Counted from the first letter of the stretch, positions 4,054-63,544 are shown. The stretch: 64,000 bases of DNA from a virus (IMGVR_UViG_3300017716_001756:1-64000), one strand, 5' to 3'. Notes: generated by a model not told the origin, from the sequence alone. A program made the numbers and translations.

Positions 4054-4360
4054 CTTCAACCTTGTAAATCCGTAGCCCGTCAAAACCGATCACTATATGT
4101 TTATGCTCAGGGAAATTAAGAAACCCGAGATAATCCTCGTAACTCAATTGAGAGGTCTTGCTAGGTTGAGTATGCCAAATAGCAGAAGCTTTAGCAAGGT
4201 AAGCTTCTTGGTCTTCGAAGCTTACTTCGAACAACTCTTTAGACAGTGGGTGCTGGTTCTCAACTTCAACCACTTCATTATCAACAATGAACCCAACCCT
4301 TTCAGGACCGGTGGCGCTATACTTCGCCTTGAGTTCTTCCAAGTAATCTGGCTCTGACAT
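4010..4360 (-). CDS. JAB/MPN-domain tail tip protein (N-terminal half of lambda K)
   Basis: ERVGFI...AIWHTQP...LSYED JAB motif; position between NlpC and I genes. Confidence 0.8.
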   Translation of the reverse strand: MSEPDYLEELKAKYSATGPERVGFIVDNEVVEVENQHPLSKELFEVSFEDQEAYLAKASAIWHTQPSKTSQLSYEDYLGFLNFPEHKHIVIGFDGLRIYKVEDGQVLKDSISLRNS

Positions 4361-4788: not shown

Positions 4789-5295
4789 TCAATACATCTT
4801 AACTTGAGGGAACTCAGGTGGTAGATATTTACGAGCAGGGATCGTAAACCTCGGACCATCGAGCGTGTTGCGGAGTTCCAGCATAATCATGTTAGGGGTC
4901 TCCGAGGTGATTCTGGACACCTTCCATCGGCGCTCCTGCTTGATATTAGTGTTCGCTTCCGCATGGGTCTTCAAAACCCTGCGCCAAATAACCGTAGCAC
5001 CCTCGATAGAATCCTCGGCGTGTAGTGCCGAGAATACCCCTCGAATAGGGTTCTGTTCAGCATCATAGGTGAAGTTTGCAAGTCCAAGCTTCGGGCGAGA
5101 AGTGGCGTCATCGCTACTGCGAGCAATGCCAGTCAGCTTCATACCCCAATTCTCATAAGTGTTACCCTGCCATGTGGTCGTGGCCTCTGGCGTAAGATAG
5201 AGAACACCTGTGGGGTAAAGTTGGAACTCAAACAGATTCCGGTAGGCCCCACCGGTTAGAGTAAGAGCGTCTTCAATATGTTCGTCAGGTATCAC
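4789..5295 (-). CDS. Minor tail protein L-like
   Basis: TWQGNTYE, RPKLGLAN, GATVIWRRVL, LELRNTLD...TIPARKY resemble gpL; synteny. Confidence 0.8.
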   Translation of the reverse strand: MIPDEHIEDALTLTGGAYRNLFEFQLYPTGVLYLTPEATTTWQGNTYENWGMKLTGIARSSDDATSRPKLGLANFTYDAEQNPIRGVFSALHAEDSIEGATVIWRRVLKTHAEANTNIKQERRWKVSRITSETPNMIMLELRNTLDGPRFTIPARKYLPPEFPQVKMY

Positions 5296-6266
5296 TGGAC
5301 AATCTCCACCAACTCAATCGTGAAATCTTTAAGAGCACCGTTGCCATTCATCATCCCCTCCGGGATTTTGAGTGGGGAATAAAATTGTGCTTCAACATTA
5401 CCGTAAACCGGGTGTGGGTATATGAACGTCTTATGGAGCTTGTGACGATTATAAAAAGCCTCAAGCCGACCCATGTTGACTTGCATATGCCTGTCGAGAT
5501 TCAAAGACCCGAGTGTCCTAGTGACAGCGGCGGTCTTTGTCTGGATAAGACTTGAAGCCGTAGCGGCCTTCTCTAGCTGGATTCCCCCAATTCTGACAGT
5601 GAAGTCTACAGCTTGGGCAGACCAATCGAAGCCAAGGAAAGTTCTGACGTGGGCCGTTGAGGGCGACATTCCAGACAGAGTACGAGTAACACTTACTCTT
5701 GTTGTATCCAAAGGAACCTCCCGGCGGGGAGTTATGTTGGAGACGTTAGTGTTTGCAACAGACGAGAGGGCGGCGTTGGTCTCTTGGAGAGACAAGCGAC
5801 TAGCTATACCTGTAGGAGGTGGAACGATATATCTAGTATAAATCGAAGAGGTCCATACTTCTCCGACTACCGCAGGGATGAGAGTGTAGGGAGCGGTGAC
5901 ATAAATCTCCGCCAAGGTGGATGACCCGTTGCCAGTGATCCTGAGGTCCAAGTATGGGATATCGTTTTCCACCCCAATACCTACAACTACAATATTACCG
6001 CCTGTGGGATTGACCTTTACCCAGCCAGTGGGGAGCGCCCCTGTGCTTACAGAAGCGCCAAGGCCGAAATTGTTAGGAATATAATTAGTCGATGTGGGCT
6101 CTGAGTTCACGTCATAGAGCATAGTCGGGAACTTTAGAGAGAAGCGACGAAGATCAGGGCCGTTAGGAGGCGAAGAGAACATATAGCCCGCCCCAAGCTG
6201 TATCCGAGTACCACTCTCAGGGTACTCGGTCTGCTGGGTGTGAAAAGGAAAGTCAAAAGTTTCCAT
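5292..6266 (-). CDS. Distal tail protein (gpM-like) with large inserted beta-rich, probably carbohydrate-binding, domain
   Basis: gpM-like N-terminus (TEYPES...LGAGY) and C-terminus (LEAFYNRH...FIYPHP) enclose about 210 aa ending in a RIGGIQLEK-type segment. Confidence 0.65.
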   Translation of the reverse strand: METFDFPFHTQQTEYPESGTRIQLGAGYMFSSPPNGPDLRRFSLKFPTMLYDVNSEPTSTNYIPNNFGLGASVSTGALPTGWVKVNPTGGNIVVVGIGVENDIPYLDLRITGNGSSTLAEIYVTAPYTLIPAVVGEVWTSSIYTRYIVPPPTGIASRLSLQETNAALSSVANTNVSNITPRREVPLDTTRVSVTRTLSGMSPSTAHVRTFLGFDWSAQAVDFTVRIGGIQLEKAATASSLIQTKTAAVTRTLGSLNLDRHMQVNMGRLEAFYNRHKLHKTFIYPHPVYGNVEAQFYSPLKIPEGMMNGNGALKDFTIELVEIVQ

Positions 6267-32427: not shown

Positions 32428-34083
32428 ATGTTCAGAATTCAATATGTTGGGGAATACGAATTCCTCTACAATCTTTCAGCGGTGTATGAATCGGAGGAAG
32501 CCGCCAAGGCCGCTTTCCCGCCGATCCACTCTGAAGATCGTTCCAGCTACTACACCCGTCGCGACTACTACCCTGAAGGCGCTCCGCTCTTCAAGGCGTA
32601 CAAGATGAGTGCCTTTGATGCGATGAGGCACGTCACGGATTTTTCGAGCTTCGCTCAGAATCCGTGGCGCAACGAGCGCAACATCGTTCGCTATATTTCG
32701 AAGGATATGTATATCCACCCCGATCCCGAGAATAACGCTCTCGTTCGTTTCTGGGATTTCGGGGCTGAACGCTGGACTTCGATGAAGCCGGGGAAATTCC
32801 TCAAGAAATTCTTCGAAGGCACTTTCACGGATCGCCAGATCGATTTCTACTCCGAATTCTGGCGCTCTGGCGAGCGCCCTATGCCCGCCGTCAACTTCGC
32901 CATTGCGATGACCGAAGAGGAAATGGTCTGGGTCTACAAGCATGGCCCTCAGTCCTGTATGAAGGGGTTCGATGCCGTCAAGGTCTATGCCGCCGGAGAC
33001 CTCGGCCTCGGCTACCTGACGGACGAACAGGGGCGGGTTATGGCCCGCGCTCTCTGCTGGCCCGAACGCAAAATCTACGGTCGTGTCTATCCCACCGAAG
33101 GCCGCGCGGATTCTGACCGCATTCTCTATGAGAGCGAAGAGGTTCTCCAATCGATGAGAAACGCCCTCATCAAGAAATTCAGGGACGACGGCTATTCCTC
33201 CTTGGCCGAAAATCCTGCGGGTCTCGATGGTGCTCGAATCCGCTACATCAAGCACGAGAATGGGGCAGTGATGCCCTACCTCGACAATAATCTGAAGCTT
33301 CAGATTACGGATTCCTCGGCGGGGCATTTCACGGTCAGCCGTGATCCTCTGGCTATCGCTGCGGGCACCACCAGCGGCTATATGTCGATCCAGTGGCAGA
33401 CTTGCCACCACTGCAAGGTGGAGGCTATGTCTGGATCGGCGCAGCCTCAAGTCAATCGGAACTGGAAGAATTTCAATACCAGCGGTGGCACCAGAGTCCA
33501 TGTGTGTACCGCCTGCAACAACCTCGAAACGCCCGCCTCGTGGAGAGACTCTGATGGCATTTGGTGGCTGACGAAGGGCAATACCCCCATCAACGCCCTG
33601 ACGCAGGACTTGCCCACCAATCATCCCGACTACTCCCGCTACATGAAGAAAATTCACCCTGAATCTGATGCTGCAAGGCGTATCTGGGTCTCGGACGGCA
33701 ATGGGTTGAGCTATCATGGCAGATATGTCGCTGCCCAAATTCTCCCGAACGGGAAAAAATACGCTCCTTCCGAACTGATCGAGTACCCCCGCTGGTCGGG
33801 CCAATACTTCCTCAAGGACAGTTCCGAGCATATTCAGGCCAAGAAAGACGCCGCCAAGGTTCGTTTGAAGCTCAAGGCCGAACAGGCGCAAGCCCAATTG
33901 GGCTGGCTGAAAGAAGACAAGTCGTACTACGACAAGCACGGCGAATACGAAACGTCCAAGCGGATTTCCGCTCAAATCATGACGGCGGGCATGAAAGCCT
34001 CCCTCGCCGCCAAGAAAGCTTCGTTGCAAACCCGCAACGAGCAACTTAATTCCCTGAGAGGGTCTACCTTCAATGTCGGCTAA
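32428..34083 (+). CDS. Large hypothetical protein preceding the M28 peptidase
   Basis: 551 aa; SCM, RALCW...IYGRVY and PYLD segments; CHHC/CTAC zinc-like pairs; overlaps the peptidase start. Confidence 0.75.
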   Translation: MFRIQYVGEYEFLYNLSAVYESEEAAKAAFPPIHSEDRSSYYTRRDYYPEGAPLFKAYKMSAFDAMRHVTDFSSFAQNPWRNERNIVRYISKDMYIHPDPENNALVRFWDFGAERWTSMKPGKFLKKFFEGTFTDRQIDFYSEFWRSGERPMPAVNFAIAMTEEEMVWVYKHGPQSCMKGFDAVKVYAAGDLGLGYLTDEQGRVMARALCWPERKIYGRVYPTEGRADSDRILYESEEVLQSMRNALIKKFRDDGYSSLAENPAGLDGARIRYIKHENGAVMPYLDNNLKLQITDSSAGHFTVSRDPLAIAAGTTSGYMSIQWQTCHHCKVEAMSGSAQPQVNRNWKNFNTSGGTRVHVCTACNNLETPASWRDSDGIWWLTKGNTPINALTQDLPTNHPDYSRYMKKIHPESDAARRIWVSDGNGLSYHGRYVAAQILPNGKKYAPSELIEYPRWSGQYFLKDSSEHIQAKKDAAKVRLKLKAEQAQAQLGWLKEDKSYYDKHGEYETSKRISAQIMTAGMKASLAAKKASLQTRNEQLNSLRGSTFNVG

Positions 34084-35260
34084 AGGAAAATACGTCGATC
34101 CGCTCCTGATGCGGATGCTTCAGTATAAACGACCGGCATGGTCAGCGACTGAAGAGATTTTCATCGATAAATTCTTGATGGTGCTCCCCGGCGCTCACCA
34201 AGACGACTTCGGCAATGTTCTCGTCGAAGTCGGTGACAATCCCAACATCATGTGGTCGGCTCACACCGATACTGTCCACCACAAGGATGGGATTCAGGGT
34301 CTCAGGGTCAATGGCCCTTGGATTACCCCGATCACCGGCAAAAAGCGCGAGCTTTCCAATTGTCTGGGAGCCGACGACACCGCTGGAATCTGGCTCATGG
34401 TCAAGATGATCGAAGCCAATATTCCCGGCCTCTACATCTTCCACCGTGCCGAAGAAGTCGGTGGTCTTGGGTCCAAGCACATCGCTTCCAAGACCCCCGA
34501 AGTAGTTGAGAGCATCGATTACTGTATCGCCCTTGACCGCAAGGACTATACGTCAGTCATCACCCACCAACGCGGCACCCGTTGCTGTTCCGCCGATTTT
34601 GCCGACAGTCTCTGTGGCATTCTGGGGTCCAATGACTGGAAACCCGACCGTACCGGCGTCTTTACTGACAGCGCCAACTACACCGATTTGATCGGTGAAT
34701 GTACGAATTTGAGCGTCGGATATTTCGCTCAACATGGCCCCGCCGAAAAGCAAAACTGGCTCTTCCTTCAGAATATGCTGGAAATCCTGATTGCCGCCGA
34801 TTGGGGCCTCTTGATCGCCAAGCGCAAGCCCGGTGAAGCTGACCCCGACAAGCCGGTCTGGAAGCCCTACTCTGGCGCTGGTGGCAGCTACGTCGGCGGC
34901 GGTCACCCCTACAAGCCGTGGCAGGGGTATCAAGACGACGGCGATTGGGTCGGCAAATCTGATACGGCTCCGAAACATATCAAGAGCCGTCAAGATTACG
35001 TCGCTTCTGTCGAAGATTTCTGCTACCAGAATTACGCCTCTGTCGCAGAATTCTTCGAGGAACTCGGAATCACCCTCGAAGACCTCGAAGAATACCGTGA
35101 GGGTACCTCTGACGCCTTCGATATCATCATCCGATCCGGTATCGATGAAGTCGGCGGTGACGAGCCTCCGCCTAAGGCCCTCCCGGCACCGGCTCCGAAA
35201 AAGCCTACCAAGGTTGCTCCCAAGCCCAAGGGCCGGGGTAAAATCGTTCAGGTCCACTGA
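34073..35260 (+). CDS. M28/M20-family Zn metallopeptidase-like protein
   Basis: SAHTDTVH, LGADDTAG, AEEVGGLGS, ALDR, TDS, NLSVGYFAQH metal-binding motifs. Confidence 0.85.
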   Translation: MSAKGKYVDPLLMRMLQYKRPAWSATEEIFIDKFLMVLPGAHQDDFGNVLVEVGDNPNIMWSAHTDTVHHKDGIQGLRVNGPWITPITGKKRELSNCLGADDTAGIWLMVKMIEANIPGLYIFHRAEEVGGLGSKHIASKTPEVVESIDYCIALDRKDYTSVITHQRGTRCCSADFADSLCGILGSNDWKPDRTGVFTDSANYTDLIGECTNLSVGYFAQHGPAEKQNWLFLQNMLEILIAADWGLLIAKRKPGEADPDKPVWKPYSGAGGSYVGGGHPYKPWQGYQDDGDWVGKSDTAPKHIKSRQDYVASVEDFCYQNYASVAEFFEELGITLEDLEEYREGTSDAFDIIIRSGIDEVGGDEPPPKALPAPAPKKPTKVAPKPKGRGKIVQVH

Positions 35261-35334
35261 TTAGGGCCTTGTGCTCTTATCAAAAGTGACTATCTGAGAT
35301 AGCCGGGAGTTTCCGACAGTTTCTCCCCGGTTAC

Positions 35335-35461
35335 GTCTGCGTGGCTGAGTGGCTTAAGGCATTGGTTGTGACCCAATAATCTACCTCATGGGTCTAGACT
35401 AATGGCAAGTGGCGAATGGTAGTGTCGTACTTGCCCGTGGGTTCGAATCCCACCACAGACA
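35335..35461 (+). tRNA. Atypical tRNA-like gene, most simply tRNA-His(GUG), with a 59-nt variable region; no encoded CCA
   Basis: Acceptor GTCTGCG/CACAGAC (1 mismatch) + A73; D arm GCTGAGTGGCTTAAGGC; ATTGG-TTGTGAC-CCAAT; T arm GTGGG-TTCGAAT-CCCAC. Confidence 0.7.
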
Positions 35462-35507
35462 AATAATTCTCCAAGGGGGCTTATGCCTTTCGACCCTTGG
35501 AGTTTCA

Positions 35508-35542
35508 GCCCCGACGCTCCCTCGCGGGTAGAGCGTCGGGGC
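35508..35542 (+). terminator. 12-bp GC hairpin downstream of the tRNA-like gene
   Basis: GCCCCGACGCTC/GAGCGTCGGGGC followed by ACAGTTTT. Confidence 0.55.
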
Positions 35543-37197
35543 ACAGTTTTCACGGAGCCGTGATTTTGAAATACTCTGATCTTGGCAAAGTCTCGTGGCG
35601 CAATCATGAGCGCGACGATGAAGACTCCCGTAAGAATTGGCGGAAATTCAACCGCCATGGCCAGCCCGAGGAATTTTCCCGCGAAGAATGGGAATCCAAA
35701 GGCAAAAAACCCAAGCGTAAGGACCACCGATAATGTACGGTTCAGTAGGCTCTGATTTCCGAAACACCGATCCTGCGGCCTATCGCGCCTCTTCCAATGC
35801 CAATCAGGCAAGGTTCAAGCGCGACGACCGCCAACGCATTCTCAAAGCCATGCTGGATGAAGGCTTTGACCCGAACGTGAGTCTGGGCGAGACTTACAAA
35901 ACCATAATCCGAGGATAAAATGAAAGCCCCGAATTCCGAAGCTGCTGACCGCGCCCGCATCACGAAGCAATACGCGGATATGCAGAAGACCCAAGCCCTT
36001 CTTCAAATTCCGATTCTGGAATCGATGGGTTACGTCGTCACCCTTCCCGACACTCTGGTCCCTGAATTGGGGTAACTGATATGGTCATCAAGAAAATCAA
36101 TGCGGCTCGCGCCGCTGCGTATCTTGCGTGTAAGCGCAATCGGCACCATATCGTCCGACACGGACTTCTGGGAACCGCTCTGATCGTCTTCTTTCTTGAT
36201 GCCGCTATGTCGGCATTCCCCATGGTGTCGGCATTCGCCCACACCTTTCTGAAACCGTTCGCCGTTCCTATTGCGGCATTCGCTGGTCACCTCGGGTTTC
36301 TCATGAAACCCGAGCCCAAAGCTCCCGCGTAAAAAGCGGGTATTGCGGGGCCGGGAGGGGGCTTGACTCCACCTTCTTTCGGCCCCGCCTCCTTTTCTGG
36401 ATATCTGAAATGATCCTCGATCCTGTCGAAATTCTTCTGTACGGCACTGCCGCTTTTTTCCTGACTACGATTATCTACCCCGCTTGGGTGATGACTCGTA
36501 AGGAGAAAAAGCGTGAAGAAGCCAAACCCGCAGCCGCGATCTTCTACGGAATTCTGGAACAAGACGTAGGAAGTGGAGCGCGAACGTGGCTCACACCCTT
36601 CGATATTCCGACTATCGATAAAGCTCTGCATGAAGCCGCTGTTTGTTTGAGGGATCGCCGGATCGCTTCTACCACTGTCTTCGTCAGCAAAAATGGGGTC
36701 ATGACCCCCTTGGTTACGATTACTCGCGCCGACTCCAATATTCTGGAACCGAAAACTCATGCTTAACGTCTTTCAAGCCGTCAAGAAGTACGAAATGGGT
36801 GCCCCTTGGGCAGATGCCGCCAGTGAATTGGCGCTGCACCCCGAGAGTGGCCTCTTCATGCACCAAGGCGAATACGCCGTGGTCGAACTTCCGCTCAATT
36901 TCGCCTTCCCTCCTGTTCACCTTACGTTCCTGACCGCTGAAGGCGTCATGGTCAACGCTGGTGAAGACTTCGCCTGTTTTGAAACTGAAGATGACCGCCA
37001 CTGCCTGTGGCGTCTGGATGCGCTGAAGAAGCCTCCTGTCATCCCACCGCTGGTGGCTTGAAAAAAGTTTCCCCTATGCCCTTGATCGACGGTCAAGGCT
37101 CCCCATCTTCGTGTCTCACGAAGACCACCGACTGTCATTCTGGCAGTCTTAACCTGCTGGTCAAAATCCAGCTTCTACAAGAGAAAGTGACTAAACC

Positions 37198-46214: not shown

Positions 46215-47279
46215 ATGAGTAAAGGCGCAGAAGTTTATGCCGTCGCTATTGAAGAGCATCCAAACGCAGACCGGCTTGAGCTTGCCATTATCGGAGGCTA
46301 TCGCAGCCTCGTTAGCAAGGGCCAATTCCAGACAGGCGACTTGGTGGCCTATATCCCCACAGGGTATATTGTACCACAACCCCTCCTTGCCGAAATGGGA
46401 CTCGAAGGGAAGCTTAACGGGTCGGCTCGTAACAGGGTCAAGGCTCAGAAATTCAGGGGAATTCTGAGCGAAGGTCTTTGCTATCCTGCACGTCCTGAAT
46501 GGACTGAAGGCGAAGACGTAACCGAAGCCCTTGGGCTGGTTAAATTCCAAGCTCCGATTCCTCGCCAGCTTGAAGGCTTCATGTACCAACTTGAGGATCA
46601 TGAACGTCTGGGCTTCGACATTGAGAACCTGAAGCGTGAACCCGATCTTCTCCAACTCGGTGAGGAAGTCATCATCACCGAAAAAATCCACGGCACCTTC
46701 ATGCTGGTCGTTGGTCTGCCTGAACGTCTGCGTCGTGACGACACCTTCCACTTTGAAGGCCGAGCGATTGTGACTTCCAAGGGTCTCGGCGGCAAGAGCA
46801 TCGGTCTGAAACAGACCGAAGAGAACGACGGTAACCTCTACATTCGTGTCGCCAAACAATATGGTCTTCGTGAAATTGCTATGCAAATGGCTGATGCTTA
46901 CGACCAGCCAGTCTATCTCCTTGGCGAAGTTTATGGACAAGGTGTCCAAGACCTTCATTACGGCGCAGAGCTTCCCAAGTACGCCAATTTCGATATTAAG
47001 ATTGGCCAAGACTGGTTGCCCTCAATCGATTGGGGGATGAACGCTCAGACATTTCAATACCCTACGGTCCCTGTTCTTTACAAAGGCCCCTTTGATCCTG
47101 CAATTGTCGCTCAACTGACCGAAGGCATGACGACACTGGCCGATGTTCCACCCCATATCCGAGAGGGTGTGGTGGTGAAAGGTACTACTAACCGAGCCGA
47201 CCGCCATGGTAGTCGGATCATTCTGAAATCAGTGAGTGAGGCATACCTCACTCGTAAAGACGGAACGGAATTTAACTGA
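46215..47279 (+). CDS. ATP-dependent RNA ligase (DRB0094/Rnl family)
   Basis: OB-like HPNADRLE N-terminus; TEKIHGT (motif I), GEVYG, FDI, REGVVV, ILKSVS. Confidence 0.9.
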   Translation: MSKGAEVYAVAIEEHPNADRLELAIIGGYRSLVSKGQFQTGDLVAYIPTGYIVPQPLLAEMGLEGKLNGSARNRVKAQKFRGILSEGLCYPARPEWTEGEDVTEALGLVKFQAPIPRQLEGFMYQLEDHERLGFDIENLKREPDLLQLGEEVIITEKIHGTFMLVVGLPERLRRDDTFHFEGRAIVTSKGLGGKSIGLKQTEENDGNLYIRVAKQYGLREIAMQMADAYDQPVYLLGEVYGQGVQDLHYGAELPKYANFDIKIGQDWLPSIDWGMNAQTFQYPTVPVLYKGPFDPAIVAQLTEGMTTLADVPPHIREGVVVKGTTNRADRHGSRIILKSVSEAYLTRKDGTEFN

Positions 47280-50033: not shown

Positions 50034-50744
50034 TTGAGGCCAATGAACAAGCAACGAACGGATCACTACGGAGTGCATCTAGCCTCTAATGGCCTTTGGT
50101 TTCTTATCCAGAATGACGAGCAAAATGAACGTGGACTTCTCAATGTCAAAAGTAATATCGCAGTTAAAACACATCGTAACCGACCAGTCTCTCACTCAAT
50201 CCGGTTGGGTTCTGGCGAACTCGGTGACGATCTTTCTGCTGCAACTCTCGAATGGCTTTCTAGGGACAAGCTAGGAAGCCTTCTGCTCCCTGATCCTCGG
50301 AACGCGGGTAGGGTGGTCTTCGTAGAAGAAGACCCTAAACTTCACAATCAAATCTATCTTGTAGGCTCGCTGACTTCATCGATTCGTGCGCCAGTACGAC
50401 TGGCGTGGACCGTGACCTTGGGGGAGGCCAAGGCAGAATTTCGGCTCACAAATGTTCAACCCTTCATCATCACCGGTGTCACTCCTAAATGGATGGCGCA
50501 ACATGGTTCCGAAATCGCCGCCCTATTCAGGGCGGGTACTAGACCTCTTATCCTTGTTGGCTCTAGCGACGTTGTTATACCTCGCGAAGTCCAAGAAAGA
50601 TTGAAGCCCGGTGCCTTCCGTCGCCTAGGAAAACACACCCCTCAACAGCTTGAGCAAATGGGTTCAAGCTTTCTTCAGAAATGGTTTACCGATGCAAGAA
50701 AAAATAACGATCAGTGGCGAGCAGTATTCGTACCAAGAATTTGA
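50034..50744 (+). CDS. Hypothetical protein
   Basis: 236-aa ORF coupled to its neighbours. Confidence 0.6.
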   Translation: MRPMNKQRTDHYGVHLASNGLWFLIQNDEQNERGLLNVKSNIAVKTHRNRPVSHSIRLGSGELGDDLSAATLEWLSRDKLGSLLLPDPRNAGRVVFVEEDPKLHNQIYLVGSLTSSIRAPVRLAWTVTLGEAKAEFRLTNVQPFIITGVTPKWMAQHGSEIAALFRAGTRPLILVGSSDVVIPREVQERLKPGAFRRLGKHTPQQLEQMGSSFLQKWFTDARKNNDQWRAVFVPRI

Positions 50745-51144
50745 TTACATTCAGGAAGATACCACGGTATTGGCTCAGATTCTGAGAACACAAGCCAATC
50801 TCCTTGATAGAGGGGTCTCTGATGGACTCACCTTCAGCGCCGATGCCCCGGTTAACGTTCTCTATCATAAAGACCTAGTTGTAGGTTTCATGATTTATGA
50901 AGACACTGGCTCCATCGAACGCACGATCACTCTTGCGTGGGTCCATCCCGCACATCGACAGAAGGGTCTCCATAGTTTTCTGTTTAGGAAACTGAAGGAT
51001 CAGGCAACCGAACACGGATTCTTCCGAATCCTCCGAGGGCATCATAAGGAAAATTATGCGTCTGCTCTTGCACAAATGAGTCAGGGTTCCCAGATTTACG
51101 CCACGAACGGTGATTACGTTTACACGAGGAACGATCTGCGATGA
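50692..51144 (+). CDS. GNAT acetyltransferase
   Basis: VVGFMIY...AWVHPAHRQKGLHSFLF...ENYAS. Confidence 0.8.
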   Translation: MQEKITISGEQYSYQEFDYIQEDTTVLAQILRTQANLLDRGVSDGLTFSADAPVNVLYHKDLVVGFMIYEDTGSIERTITLAWVHPAHRQKGLHSFLFRKLKDQATEHGFFRILRGHHKENYASALAQMSQGSQIYATNGDYVYTRNDLR

Positions 51145-51153
51145 CCCCGATTT

Positions 51154-51369
51154 TTGTATTCAGCTCAAATCTCTCTGGTAACTTCTATCTATGTGCATAG
51201 ACCCGAGGGACATGAGGTAGATCATGAGATACCATTAAATCATCCTTTAGTATGTGGGCTACATTGTGTAGCCAATCTTCAGTATCTTATTGCTGAAGTT
51301 AACAGAGAAAAATCAAATAGGTTTAACCCCAATGACTTCAGTTACCCTTCGCGACTATCAACAGCTTGA
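51154..51369 (+). pseudogene. Truncated HNH endonuclease remnant overlapping the helicase start
   Basis: Only the C-terminal HNH core remains ([27 protein letters not shown]...NREKSNRF), with no credible start codon. Nearly matches the HNH at 22937-23359. Confidence 0.75.
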
Positions 51370-58283: not shown

Positions 58284-60864
58284 CTTCCGGGGGTTCAAAG
58301 ATTTTCTGCTTAAACTCATGGCCAAGCCGGAACTCACCGGCATTGACCTTGAGACCCATAACGATAACGCCCACGCGGGCATCAAACAGTACGACGAAGA
58401 CGGTGTCTTCGATCTTCGTCGTACTGTCATCACTGGTTTCTCCCTCTACAAGGACGGTGAGAACGAAGCTTACTATTTCAATCTGGAACAGGCTGACGTA
58501 GAGAATCGGCTGACTTGGGAAGAAGTAAAACCTGTTCTTGAGGCGAACGCCAGTGGTCTGTGGATAGCTCACAACGCCACGTTTGAACGTACCATGCTGT
58601 TGTCCGTGAAGGATTACCAGCTTGATGATGAGCGCCTGATCGACACCATGCAAATGGCAGTGTCGAACCATAATCGCGACGAATATTCTATTGAGTCTCT
58701 CGTCAGCACCGGCATTGAGGCGTTTGCTCCGATCATTCCGAAGGCGGCTGTAGCCTTTGCCGAATTCGCTGGCCGTAATCATATGACCAGCGAACAATCT
58801 GAGGTTCTCGGCCAAGTCATTGGCAAATCCTCCAAGGCGGCGTTCAGTTATAACGGCTTGGTCAAGAGCATCGCTTACGGCTATGGCCTCAAGCAGATCG
58901 TTGAACGTTTCTTCGGGGTCAAGATGACGACCTACGAGGAAGTGCTGCGTGGGCGTAAGCACATGGGCCTTCTTACGGGTGACGAAGTTGTCGAGTATGG
59001 TGCCGATGATGCCTATTGGGCAGTGCGTGTCTTCAAGGAACTGAAGGACCGGATGCTGGAAAGCAACCCGCTGGTTCTCAAGACGTTCCTGACGCAAGAG
59101 AATCCGATGATCAAAGTGTACTCCGATGTTTGGAGACATGGGGTTCGCATCAATACCCCTAACGTCAAGGCCCGACAGGCAGTTGAGCGTGATGCTTACG
59201 CTATGAAGTTGCGTGAGCTTCGTCCCGTGATTCGGGGGCTTCTGCCGTTTGACGAAGCTCCCCACGCAGGGTTGGCTAAGGACGACAAGTCCTATATGAG
59301 AAACGAAGCTTACAAGAAATACCGTAAGCGTATCGAAGATTGGGCAAACACTGACGACAGTGGTATGACCAACTACGAAGTCAGTAAGCAAGTCTCCGGT
59401 GCGGTTTCAGAGTCGTGGACCTATGAGCACGACGATAAGAACGGCGACCTTAACTTCGCCTACTGGATGACGCAGCGCGTCTTGATGTACGACCTGTTCC
59501 GTATCCCTGTGCTCAAGTACAAGGGTAAGGTACAGTCGGACGCCGACGCCCGTGGTAAGCTCATGGAGAAAATGAGCGGTGAAAAGCTTGCCGCCATGAG
59601 GATTCTCAATGAAATGGTGGGTATTGAGCAGCGCATGAAGCTGTATCTCAATCCTTATCTGATGCTTCTTGATCCTGAAACTGATAGAATCTATCCGCAG
59701 CTTTCGTCTATGCTAAACACTCGGCGCATGGGTACTTCGTTCCCCAATCCTATGCAGCTTAGCAAGCGTGGTGAGAGTACCTATATTCGAGGATTCTATC
59801 TACCCGATGAAGAAGACCACGTTATTGTTTCATTGGATTGGTCTAGCTTTGAGCTTGTTATCATTGGTGAGCTTAGTGGTGATCCTGAATTTGCCCGTAA
59901 TTTTTCACAGCTTCCCTTTGGCGACCTCCATACTGGCGCTGCTGTCGATTGCCTACGGGTCACGATACCGGAACTCACGCTAGACCTGTTTAACAATCTG
60001 GACACTCTGTCCATTGAGGAAATCAATGCTATTAACCCGAAGATTCTTATCGATCCATCGGGTAATAGTATGGACCCCAAGAAGGCCAAGAAGTTCTGGC
60101 GAACTGTCGTCGGCAAAGGAGCCAACTTCAACTACTTCTACTCTGGTGCCCTCTCCACTGTTGGAGACACGCTAGGCTGGTCGTCTGATACCATGTGGGA
60201 AGCGACGGATAGATACCGTCAACGCTTCGCAGTGGCTGAAGCGTGGCGCGTTGATACCATCCAGCGTCTGCAACGTGACGGCTATCTGACCCTGCCTGAC
60301 GGCCACCGTAGGGTTCGTTATGAGGCTACCCAAGAGTGGGCCAGCTTCATGAAGAACCAGTTCTCTCAGAAGCAACAGTATCTTGGCCTCCAAACCAAGG
60401 CACTGACCACCTTCGGGGGGCTTGTTATCAAGTCCTTGCAGTCCAGAGCCAACAACCAAGGTGTAAACGCACTGGTGCAAGGCACTAACGCCTTCATCGC
60501 CAAGCGTTCCATCCTCAGGATCATCCCTGCGGCTACGGCTGCTGGTTTGAGGTTCCGTTTCATGTTCCCTGTTCACGACGAGCTTGTCTGGTCAGTTCAT
60601 AGGGACGATGTTGCAGCTTTCATTCAGATCGCTCGCGCCATTATGACGGATCACCCTGATATCTTCCCGACCCTGAAGCTAGATTGTACTCCCTCTGTTG
60701 GTCGTACCTTCGAGCCTTGGGACGCTAAGAAAGCCCCTGTGGGTCAGATTGAGCTTGCAGAAATCCAAGCTGATATGTTCGGGTTCAAGAGGAACCAGAA
60801 CATTGTAGAAGACACTAACGCTATCCAAGAAATTGTAAGGAACCTATATGAAAAACGGACCTGA
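58231..60864 (+). CDS. Family A DNA polymerase with 3'-5' exonuclease domain
   Basis: Exo motifs GIDLET, AHNATFE, YGADD; polymerase motifs LDWSSFEL (A), GKGANFNYFY (B), VQG, PVHDEL (C). Confidence 0.95.
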   Translation: MQTPPHDKIRSVLIDRRNFRGFKDFLLKLMAKPELTGIDLETHNDNAHAGIKQYDEDGVFDLRRTVITGFSLYKDGENEAYYFNLEQADVENRLTWEEVKPVLEANASGLWIAHNATFERTMLLSVKDYQLDDERLIDTMQMAVSNHNRDEYSIESLVSTGIEAFAPIIPKAAVAFAEFAGRNHMTSEQSEVLGQVIGKSSKAAFSYNGLVKSIAYGYGLKQIVERFFGVKMTTYEEVLRGRKHMGLLTGDEVVEYGADDAYWAVRVFKELKDRMLESNPLVLKTFLTQENPMIKVYSDVWRHGVRINTPNVKARQAVERDAYAMKLRELRPVIRGLLPFDEAPHAGLAKDDKSYMRNEAYKKYRKRIEDWANTDDSGMTNYEVSKQVSGAVSESWTYEHDDKNGDLNFAYWMTQRVLMYDLFRIPVLKYKGKVQSDADARGKLMEKMSGEKLAAMRILNEMVGIEQRMKLYLNPYLMLLDPETDRIYPQLSSMLNTRRMGTSFPNPMQLSKRGESTYIRGFYLPDEEDHVIVSLDWSSFELVIIGELSGDPEFARNFSQLPFGDLHTGAAVDCLRVTIPELTLDLFNNLDTLSIEEINAINPKILIDPSGNSMDPKKAKKFWRTVVGKGANFNYFYSGALSTVGDTLGWSSDTMWEATDRYRQRFAVAEAWRVDTIQRLQRDGYLTLPDGHRRVRYEATQEWASFMKNQFSQKQQYLGLQTKALTTFGGLVIKSLQSRANNQGVNALVQGTNAFIAKRSILRIIPAATAAGLRFRFMFPVHDELVWSVHRDDVAAFIQIARAIMTDHPDIFPTLKLDCTPSVGRTFEPWDAKKAPVGQIELAEIQADMFGFKRNQNIVEDTNAIQEIVRNLYEKRT

Positions 60865-61408
60865 ACTGTGGGACAAAATCCTGTCTCATTTCCCTGAAGA
60901 CACTATCCTCGCTGGTGGTGCTGTACGAGACTTCTTCCTTGGCGTAGAGCCGAAGGACTTTGATCTGTTCAGCCCCTATAGCTCATACAAAGCTGACATT
61001 GAGGGGATGAACCACATCGACTTCGATGATGGTGAAGGTACCCATGCTGAAGAATATGAGGCCATGGGTGAAATCGGTATCGTCATGAAGGGCGAGATTG
61101 AAGGTGTGAATGTCGATTACATCGGTATGCATCTGGACGATCCTGTCGCTATGATCGAGAGCTTCGATACGGATATCAACCAAGTCTTCTTTGCCCGTGG
61201 GGGTCGTCTGTATAAGAAGGCAGGGTTCATCAAGGCACTGGAAACCAAGATCGTGACAGTGCAACGGGGTGACCGATTGGAGCGTACCCAAGAACGCTTT
61301 GACCGCTTTAATCTCAAGATGCACGGACAGTTCACCCTCGTTGTCCCTGAGGGTTTAGCGATGCCTGAAGTTACGAACGATCCTGAGTTTAATTTCGGAG
61401 CAGACTAA
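60848..61408 (+). CDS. Nucleotidyltransferase (CCA/poly(A) polymerase head-like)
   Basis: LAGGAVRD...PKDFDLF and SFDTDINQV motifs. Confidence 0.8.
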   Translation: MKNGPELWDKILSHFPEDTILAGGAVRDFFLGVEPKDFDLFSPYSSYKADIEGMNHIDFDDGEGTHAEEYEAMGEIGIVMKGEIEGVNVDYIGMHLDDPVAMIESFDTDINQVFFARGGRLYKKAGFIKALETKIVTVQRGDRLERTQERFDRFNLKMHGQFTLVVPEGLAMPEVTNDPEFNFGAD

Positions 61409-61422
61409 GCTATACTGCCGGT

Positions 61423-61875
61423 ATGACAAAAGCAAAAAACACCGGCAAATCTAGTGAAGCTCTCTTCGACAACACCATCAAAAGTGTTTACGGAATCAAG
61501 GGCCACGTCCAAATCTTCTACGACGCTGCTTACCTTCATGGTTTGAACCGTCGTCCTGTACTAGCCCCGGAACAACCAGCCGACAGACTGGTGACCGTTA
61601 ATGGAACGACTTTCTACGCAGAGATTAAATCAGTTTCTGATGGAAAGTCGTTCCCATTTGGGATGATAAAAACGAATCAAAAGGCTGCTGCGAAGTTGCA
61701 AACGCTCGCTGAAGGACTATATAACTTCTTCGTCCACGATCTTGCTACAGATACATTCTACGTTGTCCCCGCCTCTCAAGTGCTCGCCACTATGGAGGCT
61801 GGTAAACAGTCTCTGAAGTGGAGCGAAATGACTGTCTGGCAAGACTACGAGACGTATAAGGAGTCACATGACTAA
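61423..61875 (+). CDS. PD-(D/E)xK nuclease, probable Holliday junction resolvase (RecU-like)
   Basis: QPADRL...FYAEIKS. Confidence 0.7.
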   Translation: MTKAKNTGKSSEALFDNTIKSVYGIKGHVQIFYDAAYLHGLNRRPVLAPEQPADRLVTVNGTTFYAEIKSVSDGKSFPFGMIKTNQKAAAKLQTLAEGLYNFFVHDLATDTFYVVPASQVLATMEAGKQSLKWSEMTVWQDYETYKESHD

Positions 61876-62419
61876 TCCCCCCTTCACCGACGTAATGGTT
61901 GATATCGAGACTACAGGAACACAGCCTAACCGATCAGGTATTCTTCAGATCGGTGCCGTGAAATTTAATCTTGCTGAGCGAACAGTTTCTCCAAACCTGT
62001 TCAACCGATCCCTTCGTGTCCCCGCGTGGCGGTCTTGGGATGAAGACACCCGAGAGTGGTGGGCCAAGCAGCCTGATGTTCTATACAACATCGTAGCTCG
62101 CTCAGAGTCCCCCCGAGTGGTGATGGACGACTTCGTCCAGTGGGCCATGCAGCCCGGTGGCCAGCTTCGGTTCTGGGCCAAGCCCACCAGCTTTGACTTC
62201 TCGTTTGTCAGTTCCTATCTGAGAGACTTCGAGCTTCCTCAGCCGTTTTCCTACAGGGATGCCACAGATATGAACTCGTTCTTCAGTGGGCTTTACTTCC
62301 CCCTTCCCGTTGACCGTGAGGGCGAGCCCACTATGGTCGGCACCGCACACAACGCATTAGCTGACGCCCTCTTCCAGACCAAGCTCGTGTTCCACCACGC
62401 AGATAAGGTAGGCAAATGA
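61868..62419 (+). CDS. DEDDh 3'-5' exonuclease
   Basis: VMVDIETTG, IGAVKF, WAKPTSFDF, HNALADALFQ. Confidence 0.88.
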   Translation: MTNPPFTDVMVDIETTGTQPNRSGILQIGAVKFNLAERTVSPNLFNRSLRVPAWRSWDEDTREWWAKQPDVLYNIVARSESPRVVMDDFVQWAMQPGGQLRFWAKPTSFDFSFVSSYLRDFELPQPFSYRDATDMNSFFSGLYFPLPVDREGEPTMVGTAHNALADALFQTKLVFHHADKVGK

Positions 62420-62551
62420 GTAGAGCAGAAATTGAAATCGGGGCCATCGCAATGTTTACAGTGGCGTATCCCGGAAGTAATTGGTACTCCGTAGGCTATG
62501 CTGTCCGTCATAGTTGGAGGGTCAAATTTAGCGAAATGGTGCGGGAGTCCT

Positions 62552-63544
62552 ATGCGTAACCCACAAATCGAACTGAACGGTAAGCTGTACCAAACCATCG
62601 GTGATAGCCACCTTGGTCGTAAATATGTGAATGGCGTCCCCCTCCATATGCGGGGCAAAATCGAGGAAATGCAGCGTGAAAAATTCGAAAGCCTTTTGGG
62701 AATTGATGGTGTTCAAGGGTATATTCTGGTTGGCGATAGCTTTGACGACTTTATCGTCGATCCTACTGACGTTGACTATGCTTCTAGCACTATTCTCACT
62801 GCTGCCCGTAATAATCCCGACCGCCGGGTTGTGGTACTTGGTGGGAATCATGATGAATCGAAAGACCTTACTCGCAAGTCTTCTTTCGACAACCTTAAAA
62901 CAATCCTCAAAGAAGCGGCGCTAAGCAATGTTTCCGTTATCGAGGAACCCACTATCATCGATGGAGTGGGGTATATTAGCTGGTCTGCTAAGTATTCCGC
63001 AAAAGAACTCGCTGAACAACTGGTTAGTAAAGCGGGGGATGAACGTCTTGCCGCTGTCTTCGGCCATTGGGACGTTGTACTGCCGTCCAACGCCAACCAT
63101 TACAACATGGTGCCCACAGACACGCTGGTAGCTATCACGAATAAGGTAGTCACTGGTCACGTCCATAAGCCCGGTGTGATTGAGCGTGATGGTATAGAGA
63201 TTACTATGACCGGATCGATCATGCCTCTGGCCCACGGAGAAGAGACGGATGAAGATGAACTGTTCTACACAATCACCAGACAGGACTACGATGCGGACCC
63301 GGCAAAGTACGAGGGCAAGTTTGTTCGCTTCACGCTATTTGAAGACGAGGAACTCCCTGATGGCAATTTCCTTCAGATCAAAGCCTACGTCAAACCCACT
63401 AAGCAATCTCTTGAAGATGATTCAGGGCCGACTGAGTTTGATATATCCAAGATTCTGACCAAGTTCCTGATCGATCAAGAGATTGCCCCCGACAAGACTG
63501 CCGAAGTAGTAGAGAGATTTAATGCTAAACAAGATCGAGATTAG
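62552..63544 (+). CDS. SbcD/Mre11-like metallophosphoesterase nuclease
   Basis: GDSH, VGDSFD, GGNHD, GHWD, GHVH, GS motifs. Confidence 0.9.
   Translation: MRNPQIELNGKLYQTIGDSHLGRKYVNGVPLHMRGKIEEMQREKFESLLGIDGVQGYILVGDSFDDFIVDPTDVDYASSTILTAARNNPDRRVVVLGGNHDESKDLTRKSSFDNLKTILKEAALSNVSVIEEPTIIDGVGYISWSAKYSAKELAEQLVSKAGDERLAAVFGHWDVVLPSNANHYNMVPTDTLVAITNKVVTGHVHKPGVIERDGIEITMTGSIMPLAHGEETDEDELFYTITRQDYDADPAKYEGKFVRFTLFEDEELPDGNFLQIKAYVKPTKQSLEDDSGPTEFDISKILTKFLIDQEIAPDKTAEVVERFNAKQDRD

Follow-up and report, generated by a model that had tools for sequence, protein, structure and literature searches.

How is a gene to be understood that is built like a transfer RNA (tRNA) from end to end and that also encodes a strand able to hide its own anticodon? 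The question is raised by a 127-nucleotide (nt) tRNA-like gene in IMGVR_UViG_3300017716_001756:1-64000, the 64-kb stretch of phage DNA analysed here (the window), which forms the start of a 79,046-bp IMG/VR virus record from a freshwater metagenome, with a completeness estimate of ~96%. Our results support its identification as a gene derived from a tRNA, whose anticodon region can adopt either of two mutually exclusive folds, here called fold A and fold B. Very probably it forms, together with a leader hairpin, an accessory cassette of ~200 bp in the early region of this ~79-kb phage, with the stop codon of an M42/M28-like peptidase gene on one side and the terminal hairpins of that gene on the other, and derives from a serine-type class II tRNA; relative to its closest relatives it has, with similarly high probability, kept the acceptor, D and T arms and a variable (V) arm of about the same size, lost residue 26 and gained 26 nt. 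Our preferred reading of the RNA, held tentatively and at a probability of a little under 0.4, is that of a non-decoding tRNA mimic. Coordinates are collected in Table 1.

Frame and folds of the tRNA-like gene

When the whole window was searched against 4227 Rfam families, the gene matched RF00005 end to end at 38.7 bits, against a gathering score of 29 (E-value 1.3e-4; 8.5e-7 in a local search). This was the only Rfam match in the window, and also the only one in the local search of 421 nt at E-values of up to 10. An earlier reading of the locus made without database searches (the sequence-only reading) had described a near-canonical acceptor stem, a class II D arm and a perfect T arm, together with the absence of G-1, a discriminator A73, no encoded CCA and a GUG anticodon, and all of these are present; the covariance-model check that it proposed likewise came out in its favour. 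The acceptor stem GUCUGCG / CACAGAC forms six of its seven pairs, with a C6.A67 mismatch, and the D arm has a 3-bp stem and a GAGYGGYYNAAGG loop, the combination of serine-type D arm and V arm being that of class II tRNA-Ser. The frame residues U8, A14, G18G19 and GTTCGAATC of the T loop are intact, residue 26 is missing, position -1 is a C (C35334), and the discriminator is A35461. A second proposed check, by ARAGORN, gave a divided answer: in default mode no tRNA was called in the window, whereas under the intron option these 127 nt were called tRNA-Asn(GUU), interrupted at 35/36 by an intron of 40 nt. Two other classes of RNA were ruled out, transfer-messenger RNA (tmRNA) by an empty ARAGORN -m run and no Rfam tmRNA match in the window, and a YrlA-like Y RNA by the lack of an Rfam match in the window.

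The extra length of the gene lies in the 59 nt (35378-35436) that separate fold A from the T stem, which the Rfam alignment handles as a variable-region insertion. In a MAFFT alignment of the window gene with seven class II relatives, AUUGG-UUGUGAC-CCAAU matches the anticodon arms of the relatives, one residue short (position 26), and 35404-35436 matches their V arms. The 59-nt variable region of the sequence-only reading is thus correct in its length and in its two hairpins (TCTA/TAGA and GGCAAGT/ACTTGCC), but it is not one region, as the alignment divides it into a 33-nt V arm and a 26-nt insert. Natural variable regions measure 4-5 nt or roughly 10-23 nt, and neither the 59 nt of fold A nor the 33+26 nt of fold B falls within this range. 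Similarly, the same reading had suggested an insert of 24-26 nt near position 37/38; the 26-nt insert exists, but the alignment places it 3' of the anticodon arm, outside the loop.

The 3' part of this insert, UGGGUCUAGACUAAU (35389-35403), is identical at 11 of 15 positions to the exact reverse complement of 35361-35375. Two of the four differing positions retain pairing as G.U, and the other two form a 2x2 internal loop (G35368 U35369 / U35395 A35396) opposite G34-U35. It is this antisense segment that creates fold B. We found no second copy of the insert in the 79-kb genome or in any locus retrieved. An origin by tandem duplication of the anticodon arm was dropped, as the 9-nt tails after the two "arms" share nothing, and a 12-nt complementarity between the loop at 35379-35390 and 51211-51222 is at chance level (blast E 0.45).

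Both the GUG loop of fold A and the pairings of fold B (35360-67 with 35397-404, and 35370-75 with 35389-94) are present in the sequence, as previously described. Fold B is the minimum-free-energy structure of the 127-mer. The hairpin 35361-35404 alone reaches -15.7 kcal/mol (z = -3.7; none of 200 shuffles as good), and the V-arm hairpin 35404-35436 has a z of -2.95 (2 of 200 shuffles). With the cloverleaf frame enforced, fold B is predicted at -44.9 and fold A at -35.2 kcal/mol, a gap of 9.7 kcal/mol, and in the unconstrained ensemble fold B takes a share of 0.68 and fold A one of ~4e-7. In this purely thermodynamic model, an accessible 5-bp stem with a 7-nt loop, as expected of a decoder, is not the dominant fold, and the RNA as transcribed should be tRNA-shaped with a long, closed anticodon branch. 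The size of the gap makes a spontaneous two-state switch unlikely, and the conformational switch offered by the sequence-only reading, being so lopsided, is not supported.

Serine-type relatives in bacteria and phages

Scans with the D-arm 21-mer GTGGCTGAGTGGCTTAAGGCA recovered 49 loci from a set of one genome per prokaryotic species, and 13 loci from IMG/VR. Real tRNA-Ser(GCU/GGA/UGA) genes of bacteria and phages contain this 21-mer unchanged and, as the T arm is that of an Afipia tRNA-Ser(UGA), the frame is of the serine-type class II; the His anticodon named in the sequence-only reading does not come with a His-like body. The class I body of tRNA-His is missing, given the serine-type D arm and the long V arm, and a sample of 401 genomes, drawn from the class to which a Hyphomicrobiaceae genome belongs, contained no serine-type D arm followed by a YTGTGR loop. 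Nor does the gene have the serine anticodon and G73 of a tRNA-Ser, as it carries GUG and A73, and all the recovered tRNA-Ser with the same D arm carry G73.

Many other holders of GTGGCTGAGTGGCTTAAGGCA are odd class II tRNAs. The closest relatives of the window gene (loci L119, L101, L112, L098 and L133) include anticodons UAC, CCC, GUU and CAA on normal anticodon arms, with a triloop hairpin instead in L133. Their V arms measure 27, 31, 34 and 36 nt in L119, L101, L112 and L133, and 17 nt in L098; those of ordinary tRNA-Ser that share the D arm measure 16-21 nt. L119 also has the C6.A67 mismatch, and two acceptor pairs differ by compensatory G-C to U-A changes, indicating that the mismatch was inherited rather than acquired by decay.

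We additionally observed other aberrant serine-type genes in bacteria. Afipia and its relatives hold 84-nt serine-type tRNA-like genes (L077-L079, L082, L091, L094, L096, L113, L115 and L124), and further such loci are L084, L088, L100, L102, L105, L106, L111 and L116; these Afipia/Bradyrhizobium-group genes are of GGAGAGG/GGAAAGG type, occur in more than one copy per genome, encode CCA, and have a short hairpin where the anticodon arm would be. In Verrucomicrobia, Acidobacteria and others, class II tRNAs of GGAGAGG type bear non-serine anticodons or 8-9-nt anticodon loops (UUA in L080, L090 and L123; GCAA loops in L087, L089, L093, L097 and L104; CAC in L103 and L110; GAA in L109; CGC in L081 and L122), and have one additional base between the T and acceptor stems; they are similar to allo-tRNAs, except that their D arm is serine-type. 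The tRNA pair of L119, in a Polarisedimenticolia metagenome-assembled genome, adjoins a class II ribonucleotide reductase with a LAGLIDADG intein (L119:3133-7941, minus strand), of which a 605-amino-acid (aa) open frame of the phage, from ~base 67,930 of the full record and thus outside the window, is a 31% homologue.

A pattern search of IMG/VR for a serine-type D arm with a T loop 66-96 nt later gave 27 loci, ~20 of which are single expanded tRNA-like genes of 114-138 nt. The expanded genes, including L130-L133, lie mostly in phage tRNA clusters and score 30-52 bits against RF00005. Across the expanded set (100-138 nt), the serine-type D arm and intact acceptor and T arms are combined with a remodelled anticodon branch, V branch or both; the shared frame is there by construction, as the pattern was based on it. 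Two families stand beside the singles (L130-L133, L145, L151, L152, L156 and L159). The eight F1 genes (114-139 nt) have an invariant acceptor (GGAAGGA) and T arm, no ordinary anticodon arm, and a conserved core ...GGAAUAAGCYGCUGAAA...GGCGGYGAAGAAAGCGUAGGACAUC with hairpin modules variably present; the three members scanned (L138, L140 and L142) score 37-52 bits against RF00005, and F1 genes lie near ordinary tRNAs where scanned. In the three F2 genes a 6-bp stem at the position of the anticodon stem encloses 52 nt and shows two compensatory pairs, weak statistics from three sequences. Default ARAGORN misses L130-L133, L136 and L137, those on which it was run. Aberrant genes inside phage tRNA clusters were seen at L132:~1860-1965, L133:6578-6682, L130:4910-5008 and L131:4335-4454, and in L136 and L137; in that of L132 the place of the anticodon arm is taken by a 6-bp tetraloop hairpin, and the second hairpin bears a perfect UUGGAAA (Ser GGA) loop.

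The cassette and its genomic setting

None of the runs in which the phage is recorded is an RNA run. We compared contigs of four other freshwater or aquatic DNA runs over 34600-36400 of the window, none of which spans 35271-35575. One contig, from run X4, is ~92% identical over 35017-35261 and then continues with CTAATTCTCCAAG, which corresponds to window 35464-35475, such that the peptidase stop codon abuts the first downstream hairpin and 35262-35463 is absent. The gap takes in the leader hairpin, its conserved motif and the whole tRNA-like gene, and ends 2 nt past the discriminator. This comparison suggests that 35262-35463 is an optional cassette, a hint only, as it comes from a single contig of low depth.

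The leader 20-mer GAGTTTCYGACAGTTTCTCC is unique in the genome and in the window (0.02 occurrences expected by chance); a further copy lies at 5724-5743 of L001, a locus from a related phage. Each copy supplies the loop and the inner stem of a hairpin, and between the two phages the loop is kept while the outer stems differ. L001, in which the peptidase is 62% identical, carries a 560-nt insertion one gene further downstream. This contains an aberrant tRNA (5492-5566; 6-nt anticodon loop, 33.2 bits, acceptor stem extended by 5 bp) and, preceded by GAGTTTCYGACAGTTTCTCC, a structured RNA bearing a T arm (5741-5870), in which a 5' UCGAGGAAA pairs with a 3' UUUCCUCGA. The second RNA scores 17.4 bits as tRNA-Sec and 17.4 bits as Deinococcus Y RNA (cut-off 80), both far below cut-offs, and was therefore used only for the shared leader.

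No further copy of the cassette was found. Behind the peptidase of the relatives L003, L004, L073, L074 and L075 there is no tRNA-like gene, and in 80 IMG/VR loci with distant peptidase homologues neither the cassette nor the leader motif occurs, the only tRNAs being five ordinary ones. There were no matches to the element among GenBank phages (blastn), none in IMG/VR to an exact 22-mer of the T arm and acceptor or to the leader 20-mer, and no relatives in single-protein scans of IMG/VR with the peptidase and the terminase. A leader 18-mer matched metagenome contigs 67 times, but these look like chance matches, none being followed by tRNA-like sequence.

The phage encodes, within the window, a GpA-type terminase, a family A DNA polymerase, a primase-polymerase and an SNF2 helicase. 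The gene at 35335-35461 is its sole tRNA-like gene and lies in the early region, between the peptidase gene and a run of small genes; the cassette itself holds no sigma-70-like promoter or terminator. A few bases ahead of the start codon of the next gene we noted a TCACGG-NN-CCGTGA palindrome (35550-35563), also found in L001 (~5046-5059), L003 (~5076-5089) and L004 (~4206-4219), and its retention in related phages suggests a conserved operator or translational control site.

Several genes elsewhere in the window concern RNA ends. The 186-aa protein listed in Table 1 gave an AlphaFold model with a mean confidence (pLDDT) of 83.9, whose top 46 PDB matches are all class II CCA-adding enzymes or close kin (best match E 5e-7, TM 0.56-0.59 on the query). 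It has nine metagenomic homologues (36-64% identity) on phage-sized and shorter contigs, with the precomputed label PF26128; one is on a 46,184-nt ENA contig that, from its length and source, may be that of relative P0003 (L003, with no tRNA-like gene behind its peptidase). Together with the Rnl5-type ligase and the exoribonuclease, this protein points to a stake of the phage in RNA or tRNA ends, and its link to the cassette is circumstantial: the genes for RNA-end enzymes belong to the core of the phage group and show no linkage to the cassette.

Table 1. Features of the window and families of expanded tRNA-like genes found in other phages
Feature	Position	Strand	Remarks
Cassette (leader and tRNA-like gene)	35262..35463	+	missing from one close relative's contig
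Leader hairpin, 13-nt loop UUUCCGACAGUUU	35300..35333	+	predicted fold; conserved 20-mer at 35307-35326
tRNA-like gene, 127 nt	35335..35461	+	Rfam RF00005, model 1-71, 38.7 bits
D arm, class II serine-type	35344..35360	+	within 21-mer GTGGCTGAGTGGCTTAAGGCA at 35341-35361
Ancestral anticodon arm (fold A), AUUGG-UUGUGAC-CCAAU	35361..35377	+	GUG at 35368-35370; Rfam and MAFFT alignments
26-nt insert	35378..35403	+	gap in all 7 relatives (MAFFT alignment)
Fold B hairpin	35361..35403	+	7-bp stem, 2x2 internal loop, 6-bp stem, 13-nt loop
V arm, 33 nt	35404..35436	+	~11 bp, one bulge, 9-nt loop
T arm, GUGGG-UUCGAAU-CCCAC, perfect	35437..35453	+	identical to T arm of Afipia tRNA-Ser(UGA) (L170)
Two GC-rich hairpins	35469-35502, 35508-35542	+	flank the cassette 3', not part of it
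M42/M28-like peptidase gene	34073-35260		phrog_4191
Rnl5-type RNA ligase	46215-47279	+	closest solved structure: Naegleria gruberi RNA ligase
GNAT acetyltransferase	50650-51144	+	
Class II CCA-adding-enzyme-like protein, 186 aa, head(+neck)-only	60848-61408	+	GGxVRD...DxD motif
Rv2179c-like 3'-5' exoribonuclease	61868-62419	+	
Metallophosphoesterase	62498-63544	+	
Family F1 (8 loci)	L138:4279-4397(-), L140:6691-6804(-), L142:5111-5248(+), L143:8861-8978(-), L147:9567-9701(+), L148:6050-6170(-), L155:4132-4247(-), L163:737-875(+)		
Family F2 (3 loci)	L141:3617-3753(+), L149:3230-3366(-), L150:7538-7674(+)		137 nt

Readings of the element and known systems

As a mimic, the RNA would be co-transcribed with the early genes and probably released by RNase P together with the enzymes of 3' maturation, as the acceptor/T minihelix needed for this is intact; CCA would probably be added after transcription, since none is encoded. 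In fold B it would be tRNA-shaped, with a 13-bp helix as its anticodon branch, open only at the small internal loop that exposes G34 and U35, and in this form would be unable to read codons. It may then bind, titrate or be modified by a tRNA-directed factor, candidates being synthetases, modification enzymes and host defences that target tRNAs, anticodon nucleases among them; a role as mimic, or as the decoy offered by the sequence-only reading, may hold. The full-length RF00005 match, the intact frame residues, the D and T arms shared with real tRNA-Ser, the inherited mismatch, the two hairpins that exceed their shuffles and the energy advantage of fold B all favour this reading, as do, circumstantially, the RNA-end enzymes of the phage. 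By analogy, so do the remodelled serine frames of unrelated phages, with the eight members of F1 and the compensatory pairs of F2, and the cassette nature of the element is favoured by its precise absence from the ~92% identical relative and by the leader GAGTTTCYGACAGTTTCTCC standing ahead of a different T-arm-bearing RNA at another intergenic site in L001.

Several points weigh against a mimic. An inverted copy gives a stable fold B helix automatically, so its stability alone is no proof of selection, and the energy model takes no account of tRNA tertiary contacts, modifications or proteins. The element is a singleton, for which no homologue of the insert was found in its own genome, the retrieved loci, the 80 peptidase loci or GenBank phages, and from which accordingly neither covariation nor a sign of selection can be drawn. 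The analogous phage RNAs have nothing beyond the frame in common with it, and it was by this frame that they were retrieved; the ~92% identical relative does without the cassette, no partner protein was identified, and the loss of residue 26 and the inverted-repeat insertion also resemble mutational damage.

Such damage is the core of the second reading in our ranking, itself doubtful, in which a serine-type class II tRNA from a mobile cassette was killed by a 26-nt fold-back (template-switch) insertion and the loss of residue 26, any RNA being functionless and the cassette on its way out. An orphan element, missing from so close a relative, whose lesions amount to an inverted partial copy of the adjacent arm and a 1-nt loss, whose decoding fold is disfavoured by ~10 kcal/mol and whose sequence default ARAGORN rejects would fit this account, as would the aberrant tRNA with its 6-nt anticodon loop in L001. 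It sits less well with a remaining frame that is undamaged, its sole mismatch being ancestral, and with the differences between the repeat arms (4 of 15; two as G.U, two as a symmetric 2x2 loop at G34-U35), which are not obviously random; junk is also rarely kept in phage genomes, and similar expanded serine-type frames are conserved in other phages. Clearly less probable, and unlikely in our view, is a precursor from which a 26-nt (or 40-nt) piece is excised and the halves rejoined, yielding a class II tRNA that reads a G-U-N box. Excision of 35372-35397 would give GUG (His), of 35370-35395 GUA (Tyr), and of 35370-35409, as ARAGORN has it, GUU (Asn). AUUGG would then pair with CUAAU (35399-35403) around a canonical 7-mer loop with U33 and a purine at 37, ARAGORN accepts the gene in its intron mode, and the phage encodes an RNA ligase; a class II tRNA with A73 and G1-C72 fits the bacterial tRNA-Tyr identity set. 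However, the three excisions are equally good, so the structure specifies no product, and the alignment places the insert after the anticodon arm and not within its loop. Fold B has a 2x2 internal loop and lacks the 3-nt bulges 4 bp apart of a protein-spliced intron (bulge-helix-bulge), the 37/38 junction falls inside its 6-bp stem, and no group I or self-cleaving ribozyme family matches, 26 nt being far too short. EndA (PF01974), RtcB (PF01139) and an AAA_33-type kinase (the family of Pnkp-type repair kinase domains) are absent from the 79-kb genome, as is TGT, and Rnl5-type ligases seal duplex nicks and are not known to seal anticodon loops. The spliced tRNA of the sequence-only reading is thus left with no visible machinery and an ambiguous product.

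Two further readings rank lower still. In the first, which is very improbable, fold B keeps switched off a serine-type tRNA that carries a His anticodon, and a trigger (a helicase, a binding protein, a change in temperature or a cut in the 13-nt loop) frees fold A to decode CAY, either correctly or as a deliberate mistranslator. Two mutually exclusive folds, one with a proper anticodon loop, would be expected of such a device, the closest class II relatives also bear non-serine anticodons, and allo-tRNAs with non-serine anticodons are translationally active and associated with toxin-antitoxin loci (PMC5389517). Against it, the energy gap leaves fold A unpopulated unless a factor acts, fold A would be without residue 26 and have a 59-nt appendage to carry, A73 differs from the discriminator of serine tRNAs, no trigger was identified, and the element is a singleton. 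The second, the least probable of all and hardly credible to us, gives the tRNA shape a role in the DNA or the transcript, as a recombination or insertion target or as RNase P/Z punctuation in an early polycistronic mRNA. The right border of the cassette so close to the discriminator, the lack of a sigma-70-like promoter or terminator of its own, and the position between a stop codon and that gene's terminal hairpins are in keeping with this. A complete tRNA with elaborate hairpins, though, exceeds what would be required of an att site or a cleavage signal, no gene for an integrase or recombinase was seen alongside, and cleavage would strip the protective 3' hairpins from the peptidase mRNA.

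Phage tRNA genes are now viewed as weapons against defences that cut or modify tRNAs. If functional, the window gene would keep every tRNA-processing handle and hide its anticodon with a self-encoded antisense strand, as a mimic and not a decoder, for which the serine frame would be a natural chassis because its synthetase does not read the anticodon. If dead, it would be an example of a fold-back insertion killing a tRNA, and little beyond. Default ARAGORN misses serine-type genes of 100-138 nt in unrelated phages, so censuses of phage tRNAs may overlook an RNA class, and at least one family of such genes is conserved. A broader joint reading, speculative and well short of probable, would see the cis-antisense insert as a cage built into a serine-type tRNA whose anticodon, of the His/Tyr box, is foreign to it, and phages as repeatedly making non-decoding effector RNAs from the serine frame on gain-and-loss cassettes; these might be decoys or handles for tRNA-targeting nucleases, synthetases and the tRNA-end enzymes of phages, the element and F1/F2 together forming an undescribed class of viral tRNA-scaffold RNAs.

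Compared with class II tRNA-Ser, the window gene has the same 7/5 acceptor/T branch, D arm, T arm and V hairpin abutting the T stem, but differs in its GUG, A73, lack of CCA and missing residue 26, in a 33-nt V arm (theirs 16-21 nt), and in the 26-nt antisense insert that brings it to 127 nt (theirs 88-93 nt). It shares with its closest relatives the D arm, the same or nearly the same T arm and an anticodon outside the Ser/Leu/Tyr set, whereas theirs is a 17-nt anticodon arm, residue 26 is present, G73 prevails, and none has the 26-nt insert. The expanded phage genes come from unrelated phages, have no similarity to the insert and are mostly clustered, in contrast to the lone window gene. Intron-containing tRNAs resemble it in having extra sequence that lengthens the anticodon stem and hides the anticodon, and in that removal of 26 nt restores a 7-nt loop; here, however, there is no bulge-helix-bulge, the insert is below group I size, and it lies 3' of the anticodon arm.

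The statement of the sequence-only reading that a group of Alphaproteobacteria have tRNA-His without G-1 and with A73 was found again, as a rule quoted in Mukai et al. (PMC5389517). The window gene is like these in its GUG within a UUGUGAY loop (in fold A only), its A73 and the C at -1, but they are class I, with a short variable loop and another D arm, while its body is serine-type class II. The nearest published concept to serine-type class II tRNAs with non-serine anticodons and over-long V arms is that of the allo-tRNAs (Mukai 2017, PMC5389517), with which the window gene shares the long V arm (33 nt) and a non-serine anticodon (GUG); the allo-tRNAs differ in their 8/4 or 9/3 branches and in a D arm of Sec-like form (long stem, tetraloop), where the window gene has a 7/5 branch and a serine-type D arm. 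Finally, the phage tRNAs that counter host defences (van den Berg et al. 2023, PMC10264068) are likewise tRNA-derived genes altered at the anticodon region, and the window phage likewise carries RNA-end enzymes; those tRNAs, however, are functional decoders with point changes in the anticodon loop, whereas here the whole arm is sequestered.

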